Origin: a virus
Lineage: Duplodnaviria; Heunggongvirae; Uroviricota; Caudoviricetes
DNA: 64,000 bases
Virus record (IMG/VR): IMGVR_UViG_3300036884_000676
Strand: one strand, 5' to 3'
Within the stretch, counting starts at the first letter, position 1. Each line of letters begins with the position of its first letter. The notes beneath the pieces were generated by a model that searched no databases, had not been told where the DNA came from, and saw only the letters and a program-made list of their open reading frames with translations. The position numbers and the translations under genes were made by a program. Shown one piece after another: positions 5,040 through 52,655 of the stretch.

Positions 5040-5364
5040 CGTCTAAAATACTTTTTAAAATTCTTTTTCTTAATTCATTTATATATTCTTCTTCTGTTTT
5101 ATACTTATCACCATCCAAATATAAAGCACCTTCCCCATTGAGATATATAATAGCCGGTCCATGTTCATTGTGCATTTTATATTTTTTTGTATAGATAATA
5201 AAATGACCGCCCTTTTTAACTTTCATTGATAATTTGAAATCTGGTTTTTTTAAAAATTCAAAATTTTCTTTTATAAATTTTTTCCATTCACCATGTTCAT
5301 CATCATTTATTTCAATAACGACATATTCAATATCATTCTCTATTTCAATACTGTAAGGTTTCAT
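5023..5364 (-). CDS. HNExGPA-family paralog 1
   Basis: MHNEHGPAII...LYLDG...EEEY...RKRILKSIL. Confidence 0.7.
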   Translation of the reverse strand: MKPYSIEIENDIEYVVIEINDDEHGEWKKFIKENFEFLKKPDFKLSMKVKKGGHFIIYTKKYKMHNEHGPAIIYLNGEGALYLDGDKYKTEEEYINELRKRILKSILDDETDD

Positions 5365-9029: not shown

Positions 9030-10387
9030 ATGATTACCAGTTTTAAAATATTCGAAAGTTCATTCAAACAATTATCTATTCCAGTAGTTAATAGATATGT
9101 TTATCATTCTTCTAATCCAATATTTAGGAAATCAATATTAGAAAAAGGTTTGATACCAAAAAAAGGGGACAAAGAATTGGAGAAGATCATTATGGTAAAG
9201 CTATATTTGTCACTAATTCAGATAAGAAAAAAGATTGGTTTGATTCGACCTATGATGACGATGTTTATAAGATTGATACAACAAAGACAAATAATTTATG
9301 GTATAAGGATCTAAATATGTATTCAAAAAGCATAGGATCTGATATTTATATTTTAACATTTGAACCTATTCCTCCAGAATCCATAGAATTAATTTATAAG
9401 GGGAGTGGAAATGATAAACTAAAAAGAAATTGGAGAAAAAATAGAATTGTTGAAGAATTAGATTTAAAATCAAATCCATTAATATTTTGGCACGGAACAG
9501 CTAGTCAAGATTTAAGAGGAGGACTTAGTGGTTTACACTTAGGTACTTATGAAGCAGCCAAGATAGCATTAGAAGCAACAATAGGGATTCCAGTAAAAGG
9601 AGAATGGGATGGGAAAAGAGAATATGGGAAAACAAAACTATCTGGTAAAAAAAGATTAAGAACAGGAGAAAAAGGTAAATATCGTATTTCTGGATATAAT
9701 TGTGACATACCAGATGATGATTTTTTTCCAGTAGATAATCCATATAAAGCAAAATATTCAAATGGAGAAGAAATTTCTTTGAAATGTAAACCAATTATTT
9801 TTCCTTGTAAAATTGTTGGACCAATGACAAACACGATTCACAATCCACATTCTGATGATATGGCCAATTCAATGATGAAAGGACAATTAAAAAAAGGGAA
9901 TGCTAAAAAAGGTTATTATTATATAAATGATGTGGAAGATTCAGGATCGATTTCAGTAGTAGTTCCAAATTATAAACATATAGAAATTATGAAAAATGTA
10001 TCGGAAAATGTTACACCAAAAACGAGGATTGAAGATGAAATAGATCGTCTGATGGATAAGGGGTATAAAAATCTTACTCCAGATGAACAGGATTTTTTAA
10101 AAAATCCATATAAATCAACTGAAGAACCAAAAGAAGAACCAAAAAAAGAAATTTTGAAATATTATAGTATAGCTGAAGATTTCTTTCGTAGAGTCTTATC
10201 AACAGATGTCAGGAACTATGAATTAAATGATAATCTTGATATTTTTGATATTGTAAAAGATGATAATGAAGCTTTTGATGTTGCCAATACAATCTATTAT
10301 AAATATGGTATTCAAATAGATCCTGAAAACAACGATGAATTTAAATTAGTTAATATATTCAAGAAAATTAATAGTAAAATCAAATAA
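9030..10387 (+). CDS. Multi-domain ART/Tpt1-like protein split by a -1 frameshift at A7G4 (9158-9168)
   Basis: YHSS...SILEKGL domain continues in the -1 frame (GQRIGEDHYGKAIF...) without a stop into ORF 9317; second FWHGT...GLHLGT domain. Confidence 0.65.
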
Positions 10388-29957: not shown

Positions 29958-30068
29958 AATCTCTGACATGGCACCCACTCTAAGGGACCAATACGAAAAG
30001 TTTGGGAGCTATCTGGAACAAGGCCGGAAGGCAGAAGGGATGGTAGTGGGGAGCCTAAATCAGAGATT
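29958..30068 (+). ncRNA. SRP (4.5S)-like hairpin RNA
   Basis: Long rod closed by AAUCUCUGA/UCAGAGAUU, apex CAAG-GCC-GGAA-GGC-AGAA versus canonical CAGG-UCC-GGAA-GGA-AGCA. Confidence 0.45.
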
Positions 30069-30125
30069 TTTTAAATATTTTTATCAAATAATTTTTTTTA
30101 TTCAGAAATTTGACATAATTTTGTA

Positions 30126-30535
30126 GTCCCTTGTTTGATAAAGAGTGTGAGTCAAAGGAAACAATAAAGATTTTTAAGTCTTGAGTTCCGGCTGTAAAGG
30201 TAGCATACTCTTGTTCTTTGATTTAATGATGAAAAAGTTAGTTCTCGAAGATTAACGGCACCAGAAAGGTGTACGACACTCGTTGAGAGTGTACGATACT
30301 AAGAGGTGTATCAGAATCTTTGAAACGGGTATAAACCCGTTTGGGGAGGCGAGCAGCCGAACCAAATACAAACTCATATAACTCCGGCCCGCAAGTCGGA
30401 TGAAAATTGAGTATTCAGTTTTGCGGAACTGTTGGGATAGCTAACATAAATTTATTTGTTGTGGTGATAAGTCCAAATCGATATGATTTAGTTCAGGAAG
30501 TATCGGACTAATTTGGTGAAAAACAAACACAACAA
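30126..30535 (+). ncRNA. Large structured RNA candidate
   Basis: ORF-free, starts after a TAATTTTG promoter; contains a pseudoknot, a four-way junction and many hairpins. Confidence 0.6.
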
Positions 30536-30538
30536 CAC

Positions 30539-30600
30539 GGACAGGTAGCTTAAGAGAGAGCCGTATCAACGAGACGGTGGTTTAAACCCACCTCTGTCCA
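30539..30600 (+). ncRNA. 62-nt tRNA-like RNA with a truncated anticodon arm
   Basis: Acceptor GGACAGG/UCUGUCC-A, D-arm-like GCUU/GAGC, T arm GGUGG-UUUAAAC-CCACC, anticodon arm only CGU-AUCA-ACG. Confidence 0.6.
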
Positions 30601-30773
30601 CAATATAAAGGGTGCAAAACTTGTTTTAACAATGTTTTTCGGGACGGTTTAGTTAAATCGGTTATTCTTAACCAGCCCTTCTTAGAAAATTAGAAGAATC
30701 TGATACCCGATGGTGTATAGGATACCCGAAGTACAAGGGATGATCGGTGGCAACACAATCAACTTCTTTTAAC

Positions 30774-30904
30774 GAGTGTATTAGTGTAACGAAAGCACAG
30801 GCTGTTTGATGTTAGAGTAAGTTTTAGACGGCGGTCTTGGTCATTAGATTGACAAAACTGAAATATCGTAGGTCGGATGAGGGTTCAAATCCCTCATACA
30901 TTCC
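30774..30904 (+). ncRNA. tRNA-like RNA whose anticodon loop is replaced by a ~55-60-nt structured insert
   Basis: 8-bp acceptor GAGUGUAU/AUACAUUC, D arm GUG/CAC, T arm GAGGG-UUCAAAU-CCCUC; no assignable anticodon. Confidence 0.65.
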
Positions 30905-31080
30905 AAAAGGTGATGTGATGGAATAGTTTTTTCCATCCTGTTTTAAGGAGAGAACATTTGAGGATAAAGCGAGCCTACATCACAAACAGGATCACCAAAT
31001 AAGGTGAGGGAAACAAAGTAGAGTACCTTTTCTTCGGATTGAGGCCTTCGGGCCGAGGGAAATGACCTGTTCTCCCTCAA
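30905..31080 (+). ncRNA. Double-pseudoknot structured RNA candidate
   Basis: At least seven 6-8-bp complementary pairs, two of them crossing; ends at a U-run. Confidence 0.55.
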
Positions 31081-31176
31081 CTTTTTTAAAAAACGAAATT
31101 AAATTAAACTTTTTGAAAAAAAAGTTCTAAAATAGAAAAAAGAGACTTTATAAGTTAAATATATAATAAAAAAACA

Positions 31177-31249
31177 TATCCAGTAGGAACGTAAGTTCCG
31201 TTTTGGGACGCTCAGCGACCCAGAGGGGAAAACTCCCCGCAACTGGATA
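31177..31249 (+). promoter_or_regulatory. GC-rich four-way-junction RNA at the 5' end of the rplL-tRNA transcript
   Basis: UAUCCAGU/ACUGGAUA closing GGAAC-GUAA-GUUCC, UGGG..CCCA and GGGG-AAAA-CUCCCC arms. Confidence 0.55.
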
Positions 31250-31260
31250 AACTTTTTGAA

Positions 31261-31431
31261 ATGATTATGACACAGAACATCCAAAATATGATTATTAATC
31301 AGATACCCGGTAAAAATACCGATTGGATGAACTTTGTCTATAACGAATATAGAAAAAACCCAATCGGAAACGATTGGGTTTTTTTGTTTTATATGTCCAC
31401 CATAGTTTTTAACTGGTGTTCTTTGAAATAA
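31261..31431 (+). CDS. Met/Ile/Gln/Asn-rich leader peptide (MIMTQNIQNMIINQIPGK...)
   Basis: 14 of the first 15 codons encode M, I, Q or N; overlaps antiterminator and terminator. Confidence 0.75.
   Translation: MIMTQNIQNMIINQIPGKNTDWMNFVYNEYRKNPIGNDWVFLFYMSTIVFNWCSLK
31358..31385 (+). terminator. Attenuator terminator ACCCAAUCG-GAAA-CGAUUGGGU plus U-run
   Basis: Perfect 9-bp stem; competing strand CCGAUUGG at 31319-31326. Confidence 0.85.
31417..31428 (+). promoter_or_regulatory. boxA-like antitermination element TGTTCTTTGAAA; also 31878-31888 (+) and 45368-45378 (-)
   Basis: Matches rrn boxA consensus; found only at tRNA operons in this window. Confidence 0.55.
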
Positions 31432-31508: not shown

Positions 31509-31886
31509 ATGGAAGATTTAAAAAAATTAGCGGATGATCTGAGTAATCTCACCGTATTAGAGTGTTACCAGTTAGCTAAGATAATGAAAGAAGAATACGG
31601 AATAGAATCAAATACAAAAATTGTTGGTGTGAATGTATCACCAGTTCCAACTAAGGTAGTTGAAATTGAAAAAACAAGTTTTGATGTGATTCTAAAATCA
31701 GCAGGAACAACCAACAAACTTGGTGTTATCAAATCCATCAAAGAAATGACAGGACAAAGTTTATTGGAAATTAAGAATCTCGTTGATAATGCACCAGCGA
31801 AACTAAAAGAAAATGTAAGTAAAGATGAAGCTATGTCTTTACTGAATATTCTGAAAGAATTAGGTGCAGAAATTGAAGTTCTTTGA
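31509..31886 (+). CDS. rplL: Ribosomal protein bL12 (L7/L12)
   Basis: LSNLTVLE...LAK.MKEEYGI; EKTSFDVIL; KLGVIK; KE.VSKDEA...LKELGAEIEV. Confidence 0.95.
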   Translation: MEDLKKLADDLSNLTVLECYQLAKIMKEEYGIESNTKIVGVNVSPVPTKVVEIEKTSFDVILKSAGTTNKLGVIKSIKEMTGQSLLEIKNLVDNAPAKLKENVSKDEAMSLLNILKELGAEIEVL

Positions 31887-33202: not shown

Positions 33203-33517
33203 ATGAAAAAGGACATAAGAAAGACATTTCGTAAAGAGGTATTCACCAGAGATAAGTATACTTGTAAAGGATGTGATCAAAAACTTGATGAATCTGAATT
33301 GGATGCACATCACATCACTGACCGCAATGAAATGCCAAATGGTGGATATGTGAAAGAGAACGGTATAACTCTTTGTAAGAAAGATTGTCATATAAAAGCT
33401 GAAAAATTTCATATAACAGATGGAAAAGAATGGGTAGAGGGATTTCATCCAGATGACTTATACGAGAAGATTGATTCATCTAAGGGGAAGGCTGTTTTAA
33501 TGTCTCAAATTATTTAG
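33203..33517 (+). CDS. HNH endonuclease
   Basis: RDKYTCKGC...DAHHI...NGITLC...CH. Confidence 0.8.
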   Translation: MKKDIRKTFRKEVFTRDKYTCKGCDQKLDESELDAHHITDRNEMPNGGYVKENGITLCKKDCHIKAEKFHITDGKEWVEGFHPDDLYEKIDSSKGKAVLMSQII

Positions 33518-42277: not shown

Positions 42278-42568
42278 ATGAGAAATTACAAATTAGAAAA
42301 ATTACAAGCCGGAGAAAGTTTCGTTACCAGTGAAAAAGGTAATTCCATGTCACCAATTATTAAGTCGGGACAAAAACATAAACTTGTTCCCGCCACTTGG
42401 AGAGATGTAGATGTAGATGATATAGTCTATTGTAAAGTCAAAGGAAACTTCTACACTCACCTTGTAAAAGCAAAAAATGAAGATAAGGGTTGCTTAATAG
42501 GTAACAACAAAGGTGGAGTTAACGGATGGACTAAACAAGTCTATGGTAAGGTTGTAAAAATCCTTTAA
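42278..42568 (+). CDS. S24/S26 peptidase-like small protein
   Basis: GNSMSPIIKSG...DIV....H.VK. Confidence 0.65.
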   Translation: MRNYKLEKLQAGESFVTSEKGNSMSPIIKSGQKHKLVPATWRDVDVDDIVYCKVKGNFYTHLVKAKNEDKGCLIGNNKGGVNGWTKQVYGKVVKIL

Positions 42569-43824
42569 ATATAAATATTCAGAATTTCATTCAGTTTAAT
42601 TTTGGTTTCCTCATTCAGTGATTTCCCCTTATTTTCATTATACAGAATCATAAAGGAACTTACCACTTTATTGAATTTGAAACTATCCGTATAACCAAAT
42701 ACAGTTTCCTTAAACTTTTCAATATCAACAGTTTCCTTACCAGTTCTTGACATCCATTCATCCCATTTTTTGAAGAATCTGATGATACCATTGATGTTCT
42801 GGTCTGACCATTGACCACCATCGAAATAATGTCCGATGAACATCAGATAAAACCTCAGAACCTTTGGATCATAGTTATCTGGATTAACAATATTTCCTTT
42901 ACTTTTGGCCATCTTGATTCCATTATTCAGAATCATTCCCTGATGCACCACTTTTTTAAAAGGTTCTTCCTCACTGATCATCCCAATATCATACAGGAAC
43001 ATATTAATAAAACGAGCATATATCAGGTGCATGCAAGCGTGTTCACTTCCCCCGATGTACAGATCAACTTGTTTATATTTATCTTTACTACACAGTTCAT
43101 TTTCGTTGTACGAATCACAATAACGGATAAAATAGAAACTACTATCTACGAAAGTATCCAGAGTATCAGTCTCACCTTCAATTGGAATAGGACATCCCCA
43201 ACTTCTTTGTCTACTGACACACCAATCATGTTGATTCTCCAGCCAATCTCTTTGAGAATTGATTGTTTTCTTTGGGTAATCAATCCAATCCAGATTTTTT
43301 ATCAGTCGGTCTTTATATTCGGTGATTTTAAAATACCATTGTTCCATTTGACGAATTTCAATGGTCGTATTACATCTATCACATTTACCATCTTTGACCT
43401 GTTCACGAGCCAGAACAGTTCCACAACTTGGACACCAATTTACTTCACCCCAAGCTTTGTAAGCCAGTCCATGTTCTTTCAGTTTGATAAATATCCATTG
43501 TGTCCACTTCTGGTAAGATGGATCTGAAGTAATTACTTTTTCTTCAAAAGAAGTGTCCATTCTTTCCATCTGTTTACGGAAATTCTCAATGTTTTCATAG
43601 GTAACTTCTCTGGGATCTCTATTGACTGATTTGGCGTAATTTTCAGCTGGAAGTCCAAAGGAATCATACCCAAACGGTTGAAAAACTTTAACTCCTTTAT
43701 ATCTTTGGTATCGACAATAACTGTCTACGATAGCGTAATTATAATAATGTCCGATGTGCAGTCCGTTTCCGCTCGGATAAGGAAACATGACAACCACCAT
43801 TTTTTCATTTTTTATGTCGTTCAT
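42565..43824 (-). CDS. leuS: Minimal leucyl-tRNA synthetase (419 aa)
   Basis: MFPYPSG..LHIGH, FGLPAEN, WCPSC..VLA.EQV, DWCVSRQRSWG, DTFVDSS, YIGG.EHA.MHL.YARF, KMAKSKGN; CP1, Leu-specific and C-terminal domains absent. Confidence 0.9.
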   Translation of the reverse strand: MNDIKNEKMVVVMFPYPSGNGLHIGHYYNYAIVDSYCRYQRYKGVKVFQPFGYDSFGLPAENYAKSVNRDPREVTYENIENFRKQMERMDTSFEEKVITSDPSYQKWTQWIFIKLKEHGLAYKAWGEVNWCPSCGTVLAREQVKDGKCDRCNTTIEIRQMEQWYFKITEYKDRLIKNLDWIDYPKKTINSQRDWLENQHDWCVSRQRSWGCPIPIEGETDTLDTFVDSSFYFIRYCDSYNENELCSKDKYKQVDLYIGGSEHACMHLIYARFINMFLYDIGMISEEEPFKKVVHQGMILNNGIKMAKSKGNIVNPDNYDPKVLRFYLMFIGHYFDGGQWSDQNINGIIRFFKKWDEWMSRTGKETVDIEKFKETVFGYTDSFKFNKVVSSFMILYNENKGKSLNEETKIKLNEILNIYI

Positions 43825-44584
43825 TGTCTTTTAATTTGTTTGAGAAATGTTCAATTGAGATATTATGTTTTTTGATTGTTTTATAAATAAGACTTCTATT
43901 ACTTTCGTTATATTCCATATTTAAATTTTTCATAATATCTCTATAAGATTTTGATTTAGAAATAATCCCTTTAAAAAGATTAATATCATAATCGAAATAA
44001 TCATAATTTCTTTTATTTGTGAAATCTTTCCAATCATCTTTTTCAATTATTTCCTTATCTTCGTATCTAAAATAACACCCACCAGCCGTCCCTTTCAATT
44101 GACAACTAAATTTAATTTGTTGTCTAAAAATACCTGTTTCTCTTTCAGCTCCTCGAAGGCTAATGAATTTTTTTAAAGGAGTAAAATTTTTATCATACAT
44201 TATAATTGATTTCTTATTTGGATTGGATATTTTCATTAGTTTTTTACTTTTATCAGAATGTTTTTTTCCTGTCCAATCTACACCATCTCCACCATCTGTA
44301 CTATTCTTCAATCTAAATCCCCAGCATTTAAATTGAGAAATCCAATATCTTTCTAATGAATCAATATTATTTTTATCACCGATATCAAGTATTTCTATTA
44401 TTGGTGAAAGATTTTTATTTTTGAGATATTTTAACCATTTATTTTTTCTTGTCCAAGGTTCTTGACGGATACTCCAATTTGACATATGTCCCCTCAATCT
44501 TTTTTCTAAATTTTTGGTCTTACCTACATATTTTATAATTTTATCTTCTGGGTCTGTTAATGTATAAATATAAAATTCCATCAT
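43805..44584 (-). mobile_element. Free-standing GIY-YIG homing endonuclease with NUMOD-like repeats
   Basis: YIYTL...YVGKT...R...H; ERYWI..F; N.TDGGDG; KHSDKSKKLM. Confidence 0.85.
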
Positions 44585-44633
44585 AGATTTTTATTTCTAT
44601 ATATAAAAATTTATGTGTAATGTTTCATAGTTG

Positions 44634-44707
44634 TAACCCCACCCGGACTTGAACCGAGATATTTAGTTTCTAAAACTAACGCCGCTAACCAATTAGGCCA
44701 TGGGGTC
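44634..44707 (-). tRNA. tRNA with Leu(UAG) anticodon but no variable arm
   Basis: UUAGU-UUUAGAA-ACUAA, 4-nt variable loop, A73. Confidence 0.85.
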
Positions 44708-44717
44708 ATTATTTTAG

Positions 44718-44791
44718 TAGTTCTGTTCGGACTTGAACCGAAATATTTGGTTTTTGAAACCAACGCCGCTAACCAATTAGGCCACAGAACC
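44718..44791 (-). tRNA. tRNA with Leu(CAA) anticodon but no variable arm
   Basis: UUGGU-UUCAAAA-ACCAA, 4-nt variable loop, A73. Confidence 0.85.
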
Positions 44792-44796
44792 TTTTG

Positions 44797-44881
44797 TATC
44801 GATGGTGGGACTCGAACCCACACCCTCGTAATGAGGAACGGCTTCTGAGGCCGTCGCGTCTACCAATTCCGCCACACCGAC
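44797..44881 (-). tRNA. tRNA-Leu(CAG), class II
   Basis: Canonical cloverleaf. Confidence 0.93.
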
Positions 44882-44933
44882 AAATTTCAAATATTTACCA
44901 GTTTTTTGAAAAACTGTTCAAAATTTGATTTTG

Positions 44934-45007
44934 TAGCACCTGTCGGATTCGAACCGACAAACTTGGATTTTAAGACCAATATGGTTGCTCTATTACATCA
45001 AGGTGCC
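44934..45007 (-). tRNA. tRNA with Leu(UAA) anticodon but no variable arm
   Basis: UUGGU-CUUAAAA-UCCAA, 4-nt variable loop, A73. Confidence 0.82.
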
Positions 45008-45012
45008 ATTTG

Positions 45013-45096
45013 TAGCCTCTGTGGGAATCGAACCCACACGGTCTTTCGACCACTGGATTTTGAGTCCAGAGCGTCTACCAATTCCGCCAAGAGGCC
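45013..45096 (-). tRNA. tRNA-Leu(CAA), class II
   Basis: Canonical cloverleaf. Confidence 0.94.
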
Positions 45097-45101
45097 ATTT
45101 G

Positions 45102-45186
45102 TGGGAGTTGATGGAGTTGCACCACCCGAGCCCTGAGGACAACAGATTTACAGTCTGCCCCGCTACTACTTACGGAATAAACTCCC
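45102..45186 (-). tRNA. tRNA-Tyr(GUA), class II
   Basis: CAGA-CUGUAAA-UCUG, long variable arm. Confidence 0.9.
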
Positions 45187-45190
45187 AAAG

Positions 45191-45275
45191 TGACCAAGGT
45201 GGGATTCGAACCCACACGGGCGTAAAGCCCAACGGATTTTAAGTCCGTCGCGTCTACCAGTTCCGCCACAAGGCC
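45191..45275 (-). tRNA. tRNA-Leu(UAA), class II, with two U-U mismatches in the acceptor stem
   Basis: Cloverleaf. Confidence 0.88.
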
Positions 45276-45283
45276 AATTTCAG

Positions 45284-45365
45284 TGTCCATAGGGGGACTC
45301 GAACCCCCACGCCTTTCGACAATAGTTTCTTAGGCTATCGCGTCTACCAGTTCCGCCATACGGAC
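45284..45365 (-). tRNA. tRNA-Leu(AAG), class II
   Basis: AUAGC-CUAAGAA-ACUAU; A34. Confidence 0.88.
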
Positions 45366-45382
45366 AATTTCAAAGAACTCAG

Positions 45383-45454
45383 TGGGAATAGAAGGATTCG
45401 AACCTACAAATCACGATTTTACAGACCGCTGAGCGACCACTGCTCAATATTCCC
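45383..45454 (-). tRNA. tRNA with Tyr(GUA) anticodon but short variable loop
   Basis: GCGGU-CUGUAAA-AUCGU, 5-nt variable loop. Confidence 0.82.
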
Positions 45455-45459
45455 GTTTG

Positions 45460-45532
45460 TGGAAGTACAAGGATTCGAACCTCGAATACACGGTGTTACA
45501 AGCCGCTGAGCGACCATCCGCTCACTACTTCC
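45460..45532 (-). tRNA. tRNA with Tyr(GUA) anticodon but short variable loop
   Basis: GCGGC-UUGUAAC-ACCGU, 5-nt variable loop. Confidence 0.82.
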
Positions 45533-45533
45533 T

Positions 45534-45689
45534 TGGTGGGGGTGGATGGAATTTCACACATCGGATGATAAGTTTACAGCTTACGAAGTAACTGTTTTAC
45601 ATCACTACAATTGATTGGCCTTCGATAAAGGAAACAGTCCAATTCAGAATCCTTATCAATCGAGATACTTTGGTACAGTAATCACCCCC
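45534..45689 (-). ncRNA. 156-nt tRNA-Tyr(GUA)-like RNA with a giant D-arm domain, CCA encoded
   Basis: GGGGGUG/CACCCCC-A-CCA, GUAAG-CUGUAAA-CUUAU, T-like arm; ~95 nt in place of the D arm. Confidence 0.7.
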
Positions 45690-45720
45690 TTTTATTTTCA
45701 ATATGTTTAAGAACATGCAA

Positions 45721-45752
45721 CAAAAAACCCATCACTTTTTCAAGGACGGGTC
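45721..45752 (-). terminator. Attenuator terminator ACCCGUC...GAUGGGU plus U-run
   Basis: 7-bp stem followed by U-run; competing strand GGAUGGGUU at 45799-45807. Confidence 0.85.
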
Positions 45753-45780
45753 TTTCTGATTCTATGATAATATTTAAAGT

Positions 45781-45867
45781 TTATCTTTCAGCAATACTAA
45801 CCCATCCTCGATTTTGATAGAGGTATAAATACAAATAATATAGGTTAATATTTACTCTGTTTTTCAT
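45781..45867 (-). CDS. 28-aa Leu/Tyr leader peptide MKNRVNINLYYLYLYLYQNRGWVSIAER
   Basis: Manual translation; nine consecutive Leu/Tyr codons; stops 28 nt before the terminator. Confidence 0.88.
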   Translation of the reverse strand: MKNRVNINLYYLYLYLYQNRGWVSIAER

Positions 45868-45963
45868 AACTTTTATTCTTTCTGAAAATTATATATTAAA
45901 TAATTTTAGTCTGTTTTTTCTATTTATACGACAAAGGTATGTAAAAGTTTTAAAATAAAAAAA

Positions 45964-51569: not shown

Positions 51570-52655
51570 TTATTTTTTCTTCTTTTTTTCTTCTGGTATT
51601 GATGGTGGAAAATATTCCAATAACCAAGAATCTAAATTATCAGCAGATGGTTTATAATTATGTTTTGAATATAAATGACGAACCTTATCGAATTCATCAT
51701 CAGTTACTTTTGTTCCACAATCTGTACATTCAACTGTCTTGGCTGGTTTTGGAACTGAATTTTCAACAAGTTCATCTTCAATATTGATATCAATATCATC
51801 AATATTTATATCTTCTTCGATAGTATCTGGTTTTATATGAAGTCTATTCATTATAAAATCTGAAAATTTTTCTATCTTAATTTCTTTTTTTTCACCAATA
51901 TCATCACTATCATGATTTCTTCCGAGATATTCTTCTTCTGGTTCACCATTTATCATCAAAATAACATCCTCACCAGCAGCTCTTCCGTGTCCTGATTTAG
52001 ATTGTTCCACATATTCTTGATATGTTTTTCTTGCCTCTTCTTCTGTATCACAAGGAATATTACCGATGTTTCCTACATTTACAATGAATTCATCTGGAAC
52101 AATCACTTTTTCTTCGATAGGTTTTTCAACTGATTCTAAGATTTCATCTTCTTCAACTTCCTTAATAGCCTTAACGGTATTAGCCGCGAAATTTTCCCAT
52201 TTCTTTTCCCAAAGTTGTTTTTCCTCAGACTTTTTTTCATTCAGGTTTAATATTTTACTTAAAAGATCTTTATCGGTTTCATTTAATTCTGGTTGTTTTA
52301 CTTCCTCTACATTAATAGTAGATTCATAAGTTTTTTCTGCATCCTTCTTTTCTTTCTTATAAGCTTTATGAAACTCTTTTAAAAATTCGGGTAATGAATA
52401 TTCTTTGATTTCTTTACTCAATCTATCTTCTACATAAACGATACTATCTTTTACACTTTTGATTATACCATCTATCTTATCGGTTGTAATTTGGCGACCT
52501 CTAATACCTAAATTATCAAGAGGATCTAAATCACCCCTATTGATGGTCTGTCTTGGAGATGGTTTGATAAATAAATCAGTATCACCACCAACACCCTTAC
52601 CTTTATTTTCGGTACTTTCTTTCATGAAATCTTCAAATTTTTTAATATTCTTCAT
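51570..52655 (-). CDS. Acidic multi-module putative head protein (MKNIKKFEDFMKE)
   Basis: CTS-like N-terminus; internal KIEKFSDF and many xxE sites. Confidence 0.6.
   Translation of the reverse strand: MKNIKKFEDFMKESTENKGKGVGGDTDLFIKPSPRQTINRGDLDPLDNLGIRGRQITTDKIDGIIKSVKDSIVYVEDRLSKEIKEYSLPEFLKEFHKAYKKEKKDAEKTYESTINVEEVKQPELNETDKDLLSKILNLNEKKSEEKQLWEKKWENFAANTVKAIKEVEEDEILESVEKPIEEKVIVPDEFIVNVGNIGNIPCDTEEEARKTYQEYVEQSKSGHGRAAGEDVILMINGEPEEEYLGRNHDSDDIGEKKEIKIEKFSDFIMNRLHIKPDTIEEDINIDDIDINIEDELVENSVPKPAKTVECTDCGTKVTDDEFDKVRHLYSKHNYKPSADNLDSWLLEYFPPSIPEEKKKKK

Follow-up and report, generated by a model that had tools for sequence, protein, structure and literature searches.

How does a large phage control the synthesis of its own tRNAs? 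In the textbook view, growth rate and the stringent response act on the promoters of tRNA genes. We addressed this question at a Tyr/Leu tRNA array in a window of 64,000 nt (the whole stretch of DNA that was analyzed; IMG/VR record IMGVR_UViG_3300036884_000676, Caudoviricetes), where a short ORF with a run of Leu and Tyr codons and a strong hairpin lie upstream of the tRNA genes. The window belongs to a 210,983-bp giant-phage contig of 30.6% G+C from peat soil, in which ARAGORN identifies 67 tRNAs in five arrays sorted by amino acid. We refer to these arrays and to the leaders and cassettes preceding them as A to E, with E denoting the Tyr/Leu array.

A leader ORF with nine consecutive Leu and Tyr codons

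The contig sequence and the ORF list define a minus-strand ORF at 45867-45781, which runs from an ATG to a TAA and comprises 28 codons plus the stop. Codons 9-17 (45843-45817) form an uninterrupted regulatory run, CTA TAT TAT TTG TAT TTA TAC CTC TAT, which uses four different Leu codons and both Tyr codons and spells LYYLYLYLY. A sequence-only reading of the locus had reported this ORF with its codons and coordinates, and these held exactly. All nine codons are readable by anticodons of array E under the wobble rules adopted here. The same reading had taken the codons to match the downstream anticodons UAG, CAA, UAA, AAG, and GUA. For leader E alone, the idea that each isoacceptor is sampled is not significant (5 of 6 distinct anticodons sampled, P=0.27); only across all five leaders of the contig is it supported, with 34 of 40 distinct anticodons sampled against 29 expected with synonymous shuffling (P=0.006).

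Three related loci (L001, L014, and L074) contain homologs of this ORF that are 27-28 codons long and agree with the window in frame and in the position of the stop, and there are four distinct versions of the E-type leader (the window, L001/L035, L014, and L074). All 27 nt of the run are unchanged in the four versions, synonymous sites included, whereas the flanking codons differ. DNA contigs of four peat runs yielded no variants of use in leader E. Upstream of the ATG, this genome has no more than a weak stretch of purines; the leaders of L002 and L003 carry AGGAGA 9-10 nt 5' of the ATG.

The Leu/Tyr run by itself is not beyond chance. The six-frame translation of the contig contains two Leu/Tyr runs of at least nine codons, the other one being 11 codons long and located elsewhere. 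We used a scan of IMG/VR with the exact degenerate Leu/Tyr codon pattern as a negative control: it returned at least 122 matches, taken as chance matches, and 0 of these 122 are followed by a same-strand tRNA within 3 kb. The significance of the run rests on its context, which recurs at all five arrays.

The Tyr/Leu array and the genes behind it

The array following the leader (44633-45689, minus strand) is composed of a 156-nt tRNA-Tyr-like RNA, three tRNA-Tyr(GTA) genes, and seven tRNA-Leu genes. ARAGORN and Rfam together support eight tRNAs, one Tyr (GTA) and the seven Leu (AAG, TAA, CAA, TAA, CAG, CAA, and TAG). ARAGORN with relaxed settings adds two tRNA-Tyr(GTA) genes at 45529-45459 and 45186-45101, both with sub-threshold Rfam hits; for the gene at 45186-45101, the copy in a relative is called tRNA-Tyr at the normal ARAGORN threshold. 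The first gene after the terminator (45534-45689, minus strand) encodes the 156-nt RNA, which was judged tRNA-like by eye only and which combines a 7-bp acceptor stem, an encoded CCA, a GUA anticodon-like loop, and a large insert. The claim of 11 downstream tRNA or tRNA-like genes, all with Leu or Tyr anticodons, held in the form of 10 tRNAs and this one tRNA-like RNA. No terminator-like site was found on the minus strand from attenuator E to the end of the array.

Several further features of this region were observed. The L001 version of the tRNA-like RNA is shorter, about 107 nt. Three 75-nt tRNAs with the Leu anticodons TAG, CAA, and TAA (44633-44707, 44717-44791, and 44933-45007, minus strand) lack the long variable arm of bacterial tRNA-Leu and adjoin normal 85-nt copies with the same anticodons. 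Directly past the array, the stretch 42565-44584 (minus strand) contains a GIY-YIG endonuclease-like ORF of 259 aa and, overlapping it, a 419-aa class I aminoacyl-tRNA synthetase core of the I/L/M/V type (42565-43824, minus strand). We found no terminator-like site between the array and these genes either, and it is thus possible that attenuator E governs the GIY-YIG-like ORF and the synthetase core as well, by a putative co-transcription.

A promoter-like motif, an intrinsic terminator, and a spacer box frame the leader

A promoter-like motif (AGAAAAAACAGACT, 11 nt, ATATATAA) is located at 45889-45921 on the minus strand, between the upstream gene and leader E and 21 nt upstream of the leader ATG. 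When both strands of the 211-kb contig were scanned with a stringent pattern of this motif, only 4 matches were obtained, each of which immediately precedes one of the leaders A, B, D, and E. The motif is also conserved in relatives. It likely acts as a dedicated phage promoter, although promoter function is inferred here.

The terminator hairpin (45752-45722, minus strand; -17.2 kcal/mol) starts 28 nt past the leader stop codon. Its 5' arm (region 3, 45740-45752) is common to the terminator and to the antiterminator described below, and its 3' arm (region 4, 45722-45737) includes the U tract, with six U after the hairpin. An intrinsic terminator is present in 31 of 31 tabulated cassettes.

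A conserved spacer box (GTTCTT...TTGAAAATAA; 45692-45714, minus strand) separates the terminator from the first tRNA-like gene. With a strict pattern, the box is detected downstream of the terminator in cassettes A, B, C, and E, and a variant form is present at D; it also precedes tRNAs within arrays, for example at window positions 45378 and 31878. The box may be an RNA processing signal, a function that we can only infer. We considered it as a second promoter and regard this as unlikely: the box is ~3-25 nt away from the 5' end of the first tRNA-like gene and recurs between array tRNAs. In the form GTTCTTTGA(A/C)AT or GTTCTTTAAAATA, the box is found a few to ~25 nt upstream of many tRNA 5' ends and behind every attenuator terminator.

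Leader E adopts a four-segment layout with alternative folds

Computation of the alternative folds showed that the leader E RNA has the classical four-segment layout. Region 2, the antiterminator strand (45799-45811, minus strand), is a near-copy of the terminator 3' arm and spans leader codons 19-23. It can pair with region 3 over 13 contiguous pairs (45799-45811 with 45740-45752). The sequence-only reading had proposed a 9-bp pairing between 45799-45807 and 45744-45752, which held and which extends to these 13 bp. None of 500 shuffles of the upstream sequence matched this length (null mean 5.9). Region 1, the 5' strand of the anti-antiterminator helix, is located at 45840-45856 (minus strand), with a second short segment at 45820-45823. 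The 5' side of this 1:2 helix comprises leader nt 12-28 and 45-48, and its 3' side comprises nt 59-78 (-16.5 kcal/mol); the helix is found in the MFE, centroid, and RNAalifold consensus structures, and it overlaps the regulatory codons. The consensus of 4 homologs retains it together with the terminator and includes one compensatory pair (columns 21-70).

The full-length leader has an MFE of -34.7 kcal/mol, corresponding to z = -3.9 against 200 dinucleotide shuffles. This MFE fold consists of the 1:2 helix and the terminator, and the 2:3 alternative amounts to -22 kcal/mol. We modeled nascent RNA with a ribosome set early or midway in the codon run, at a stage at which the terminator 3' arm has not yet been made. 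In such constrained folds, a segment 2-5 codons past the run pairs with the terminator 5' arm in all five leaders. For leader E, the antiterminator forms with the ribosome at codons 9-13. With codon 17 in the ribosomal A site, region 2 is partly covered and the fold reverts to the terminator, and stalls at codons 15-17 would likewise cover part of region 2. Judging from standard ribosome footprints, we infer that the effective sensing codons of leader E are approximately 9-14.

Two earlier claims about the ribosome have to be revised accordingly. Stalling anywhere at codons 9-17 had been expected to free region 2, which held in part, as only stalls at about codons 9-14 do so. A ribosome reaching the stop codon had been expected to mask region 2, and this failed in part: with 16 nt between region 2 and the stop codon, a terminating ribosome would barely mask region 2. 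In the unstalled case it is more likely, again as inferred from standard footprints, that the moving ribosome first shields region 2 and that region 1 then sequesters it.

A cassette of this kind precedes each tRNA array in the contig

A promoter-like motif, a leader ORF, an antiterminator, and a terminator are located upstream of all five tRNA arrays. Leader A contains the run GMDCGRDDR and precedes tRNAs called by ARAGORN as Asp (three), Leu, Arg, Gly (four), Cys (two), and Met (two). Leader B reads PRPERPTEVTT, continuing to 18 codons with one miss, and its array carries Glu (four), Arg (two), Pro (two), Thr (four), Ala (two), and Val (three). The run KHSKHFSSSSKWF of leader C is followed by Arg, His (two), Phe (two), Ser (two), Lys (five), and Trp, and the run QNIQNMIINQI of leader D (window position 31261) by Ile (two), Asn (three), Met (two), and Gln (five). 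Together with LYYLYLYLY of the Tyr/Leu cassette, these are five unrelated peptides within one RNA architecture, and a strong hairpin with a U tract closes all five leaders. In a 5x5 leader-by-array matrix of the longest run drawn from an array's amino acids, the diagonal values are 9, 11, 13, 11, and 9, whereas the off-diagonal values are 5 at most. Among the runs in all six frames of the contig, each leader run came first or within the top three of its length for its own amino acid set.

Sister cassette D (31134-31385, plus strand) consists of a promoter motif at 31134-31166, the Ile/Met/Gln/Asn leader starting at 31261, region 2 at 31319-31326, and a terminator at 31356-31385. It precedes a gene for ribosomal protein bL12 (31509-31886, plus strand; both Pfam L7/L12 domains), which is in turn followed by the Ile/Asn/Met/Gln tRNA array. 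Since the bL12 gene is sandwiched between attenuator D and the array, it is probably under the control of this switch, as inferred from its position. Leader D (31261-31431, plus strand) differs from its four relatives by an extra C (CCCGG versus CCGG), which extends the ORF to 56 codons and through its own terminator; the relatives have 20 codons, with a TGA directly after region 2. Contigs of four peat runs showed no reported insertion or deletion at this site, and those from three of the runs crossed it without any difference; several assemblies thus agree in the sequence, the extra C of leader D included. As leader D reads through its terminator, the geometry is not uniform across cassettes.

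The surroundings of cassette D contain additional elements. Between the promoter motif and leader D, a G+C-rich element of ~80 nt (31170-31255, plus strand) resembles a three-way junction; it has no Rfam match and is absent from the cassette of the relatives. Further upstream, a G+C-richer, apparently structured stretch without long ORFs (29960-31080, plus strand) follows a tRNA-Leu(TAA). It contains a weak tRNA match of 129 nt at 30775-30903 and no other Rfam family match. An HNH endonuclease ORF (33203-33517, plus strand) is inserted in the Gln part of array D.

Leader codons, antiterminators, and arrays co-vary among related loci

We collected relatives from IMG/VR and metagenomes by a bL12-based search and two promoter-motif scans. 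The bL12 search yielded one locus, and a protein search with the upstream 203-aa ORF found no relatives. A terminator-anchored script delineated ~30 cassettes in ~25 related metagenomic loci. Over nine independent leader families, the run lengths of leaders with their own arrays sum to 134, compared with a permuted mean of 56. Changes in the leader follow changes in the array: a C-type leader with Ile codons precedes an array holding tRNA-Ile (L007), a leader spelling Thr/Arg/Pro/Val/Ala/Gly precedes exactly such an array (L052), and in L090 and L104 two tandem leaders together spell the nine amino acids of their array. The tandem cassettes of L090 (minus strand; oriented positions 5200 and 5790) serve one array, and both leaders spell the same set; likewise in L104. 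Homologous leaders keep the membership of their amino acid set while residue order and identity are shuffled, which indicates that selection acts on the codons rather than on the peptide.

The RNA elements co-vary as well. Between the window and L001/L014, regions 2, 3, and 4 differ in a mutually compensating way: the relatives have one extra terminator base pair, and their altered region 2 still pairs with region 3 over 11 bp. Formal counting of terminator pairs was hampered by a one-base register shift between the window and the relatives, and we read these compensating changes from the sequences directly. Across 12 cassette types, pairing of region 2 with its own terminator arm sums to 117 bp versus 79.9 +/- 5.7 bp for permuted combinations, and none of 100,000 permutations reached 117. 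By this contiguous-pairing measure, no antiterminator above chance was detected in leader types B and G.

A further element was seen in L044, L089, L115, and L119. Here, tRNA-Arg/Pro/Ala genes are preceded at a distance of 13-14 nt by a conserved ORF of 35-36 codons with a strong terminator; Arg, Pro, Ala, Gly, Ser, His, and Met are abundant in this ORF. The contiguous-pairing measure revealed no antiterminator in this element, which may be a variant switch or something else.

Similar cassettes in other phages

The design is not restricted to this clade. In the huge-phage record LR756502.1, a leader spelling Lys/His/Phe/Ser/Trp and a terminator precede tRNA genes for Phe, His, Phe, and Lys (three). 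In the cultured Caulobacter phage CcrRogue (NC_019408), the leader run RQFVQIQVVR and a G+C-rich terminator are followed by Phe, Val, Ile, Ile, Val, Gln, Gln, and Arg. This codon-matched leader maps to about 51,650-51,810 of NC_019408 (positions 9650-9810 of the locus L248, taken from NC_019408.1), and a second site is located at 7746-7990 of L248. The annotated small ORF gp349 of CcrRogue, with a terminator, precedes Pro/Lys/Leu tRNAs, with a less clear match to its array. The words attenuator and leader are absent from the phiCbK/CcrRogue genome paper (PMC3556154), and the literature searched contained no description of phage tRNA genes under attenuator control. In that literature, leader-peptide attenuation is described for amino acid and synthetase genes and not for tRNA genes.

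Rfam searches did not assign cassette E to a known family. No T-box riboswitch reached the gathering score within the window or E<=1 within 44550-45960. The Leu, His, Thr, Trp, and Phe leader families were likewise not matched, with only tRNA-clan and chance-level hits obtained, and there were no other cis-regulatory matches at gathering score in the window. Among the public RNA runs searched, we found none containing the region; three metatranscriptome runs contained next to none of its words.

Discussion

Our analysis supports the attenuator interpretation put forward for this locus: the expectations that can be computed are met, and the design recurs with co-variation. The sequence anatomy of the cassette, its alternative folds, its recurrence, and its co-variation are shown here. 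It is thus likely that cassette E is a ribosome-mediated leader-peptide transcription attenuator that sets transcription of the Tyr/Leu array, a conclusion reached without expression, 3'-end, or ribosome data. Translation of the leader, the coupling of transcription and translation in a host that remains unidentified, and the direction of the response are inferred.

In the proposed mechanism, transcription would start from the dedicated phage promoter motif, and a ribosome would translate the 28-codon leader. If aminoacylated Tyr or Leu tRNAs are in short supply and decoding is slow, the ribosome would stall at around codons 9-14, covering region 1 and leaving region 2 free. Region 2 would then pair with the terminator 5' arm over 13 bp, no terminator would form, and RNA polymerase would enter the tRNA genes. 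If decoding is fast, the ribosome would cross region 2 during the synthesis of regions 3 and 4, region 1 would recapture region 2, and the terminator would form, ending transcription at 45722. As the products are tRNAs that read the test codons, the switch would constitute a negative feedback loop matching phage tRNA supply to demand. It would be on in early infection or whenever Tyr/Leu tRNAs are limiting and off once phage tRNAs accumulate. Because the sensor would read aminoacyl-tRNA at the A site, missing and uncharged tRNAs would be indistinguishable to it.

It could be argued that the switch reports general translational capacity or amino acid starvation, for instance via charging levels, rather than tRNA abundance, or that it acts via Rho or RNA stability instead of the intrinsic terminator. 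Several points favor this view: to a stalled ribosome, the absence of a tRNA and the lack of its charging look alike, the translation of leader D through its terminator would fit a coupling-type logic, and types B and G are without a clear contiguous antiterminator. We nevertheless consider it unlikely. Each leader draws only on amino acids that its own array serves, which a general sensor would not need; a strong hairpin followed by a U tract, together with a region 2 made to fit it, favors intrinsic termination; and extra tRNA would give no relief from amino acid starvation.

Two other explanations appear even less plausible. The hairpin could stop transcription constitutively or with some leakage, or could end an upstream transcript; the ORF would then be untranslated, and the agreement between an AT-rich, low-complexity Leu/Tyr run and the tRNAs would be fortuitous. 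The low G+C content of the genome, the second run of 11 Leu/Tyr codons in the contig, and the IMG/VR pattern matches without nearby tRNAs are all consistent with this possibility. However, the match extends to 5 of 5 arrays, including sets that are not AT-rich such as Gly/Asp/Cys/Arg and Pro/Arg/Glu/Thr/Val/Ala, and it recurs in a Caulobacter phage with a G+C content of 66% (PMC3556154). The promoter motif located between the upstream gene and the leader in addition speaks against this possibility. Alternatively, the ORF could give rise to a micro-protein with a function of its own, such as a hydrophobic Leu/Tyr peptide, and would then precede the tRNA genes only incidentally. ORF length and an N-terminal MKN motif are indeed kept in several leaders. 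Yet the shuffling of residues among homologous leaders is the reverse of what selection on a peptide would produce, the run of leader E is conserved at synonymous sites, and the five leader peptides of the contig are unrelated in spite of their common RNA architecture. We thus retain ribosome-mediated attenuation as the preferred reading.

We compared this attenuator to known regulatory systems. The features of the enterobacterial leaders and of the pheM attenuator discussed here are textbook knowledge. Attenuators of enterobacterial amino acid operons (trpL, hisL, leuL, pheL, and the multivalent thrL and ilvL/ivbL) share with the phage cassettes a small ORF (translated in the former, inferred to be so in the latter) in which regulatory codons form a run, the 1:2, 2:3, and 3:4 helices, and an intrinsic terminator, with stalling favoring the antiterminator. 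Cassette E meets all structural criteria of a leader-peptide attenuator. It does not meet the criterion that the regulated genes specify amino acid biosynthesis or a synthetase, as the first genes behind it are tRNAs. The leaders for Thr/Ile (thrL) and for Ile/Leu/Val (ilvL) resemble the phage leaders in addressing several amino acids. Enterobacterial attenuators regulate biosynthetic enzymes, whereas the phage cassettes would regulate tRNAs, the decoding adaptor itself, and they are viral. Unlike their enterobacterial counterparts, they come as a set of paralogous cassettes per genome, with a dedicated promoter motif and each for up to ~9 amino acids, and they lack sequence similarity to the enterobacterial leaders, as no Rfam leader family is matched. 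The pheM leader of Escherichia coli pheST (phenylalanyl-tRNA synthetase) likewise applies attenuation to the translation apparatus and senses aminoacyl-tRNA for one codon family, but it controls a synthetase, responds to a single amino acid, and is cellular, whereas the phage element is placed before tRNA genes. T-box riboswitches also choose between terminator and antiterminator in response to the state of a specific tRNA. They do so by binding uncharged tRNA via a specifier loop and the T-box sequence, without translation, whereas the phage element is built as an ORF, with an ATG followed in frame by the codon run and a stop.

Phage tRNAs are reported to replace or supplement host tRNAs, which are reportedly degraded during infection, and T5 tRNA-Tyr reportedly acts against retron/PtuAB. 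This work concerns what the tRNAs do and is not known to address how their synthesis is controlled. A role of the cassettes against host anticodon nucleases is plausible but conjectural; the link to a PtuAB-type nuclease degrading tRNA-Tyr, suggested in the sequence-only reading, remains speculation. A bolder reading would hold that large phages run their tRNA genes as separately regulated supply modules, each with a leader in the codons of its own tRNAs. These modules would sense codon-specific decoding speed in the infected cell in real time and would restore only the tRNA groups in deficit, among them any that host anticodon nucleases have destroyed. We put this forward tentatively, as less likely than not. 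If true, the cassette would be an inducible counter-defense and a natural multi-channel sensor of tRNA availability, and this control may extend to bL12 and to the minimal synthetase in the same operons.

Taken together, tRNA synthesis in this virus appears to be under direct feedback from decoding speed, exerted separately on each tRNA group. If true, this would explain why the tRNA genes of large phages are sorted into arrays by amino acid, and it would provide phages with a way to sustain translation when host tRNAs are degraded or mismatched to phage codon usage. Leader-peptide attenuation would gain a new class of targets and would extend to viruses, and the cassettes would offer synthetic biology compact, programmable sensors of codon-specific translation. 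The same design is found in cultured Caulobacter phages, which makes the proposed regulation of phage tRNA supply testable at the bench.
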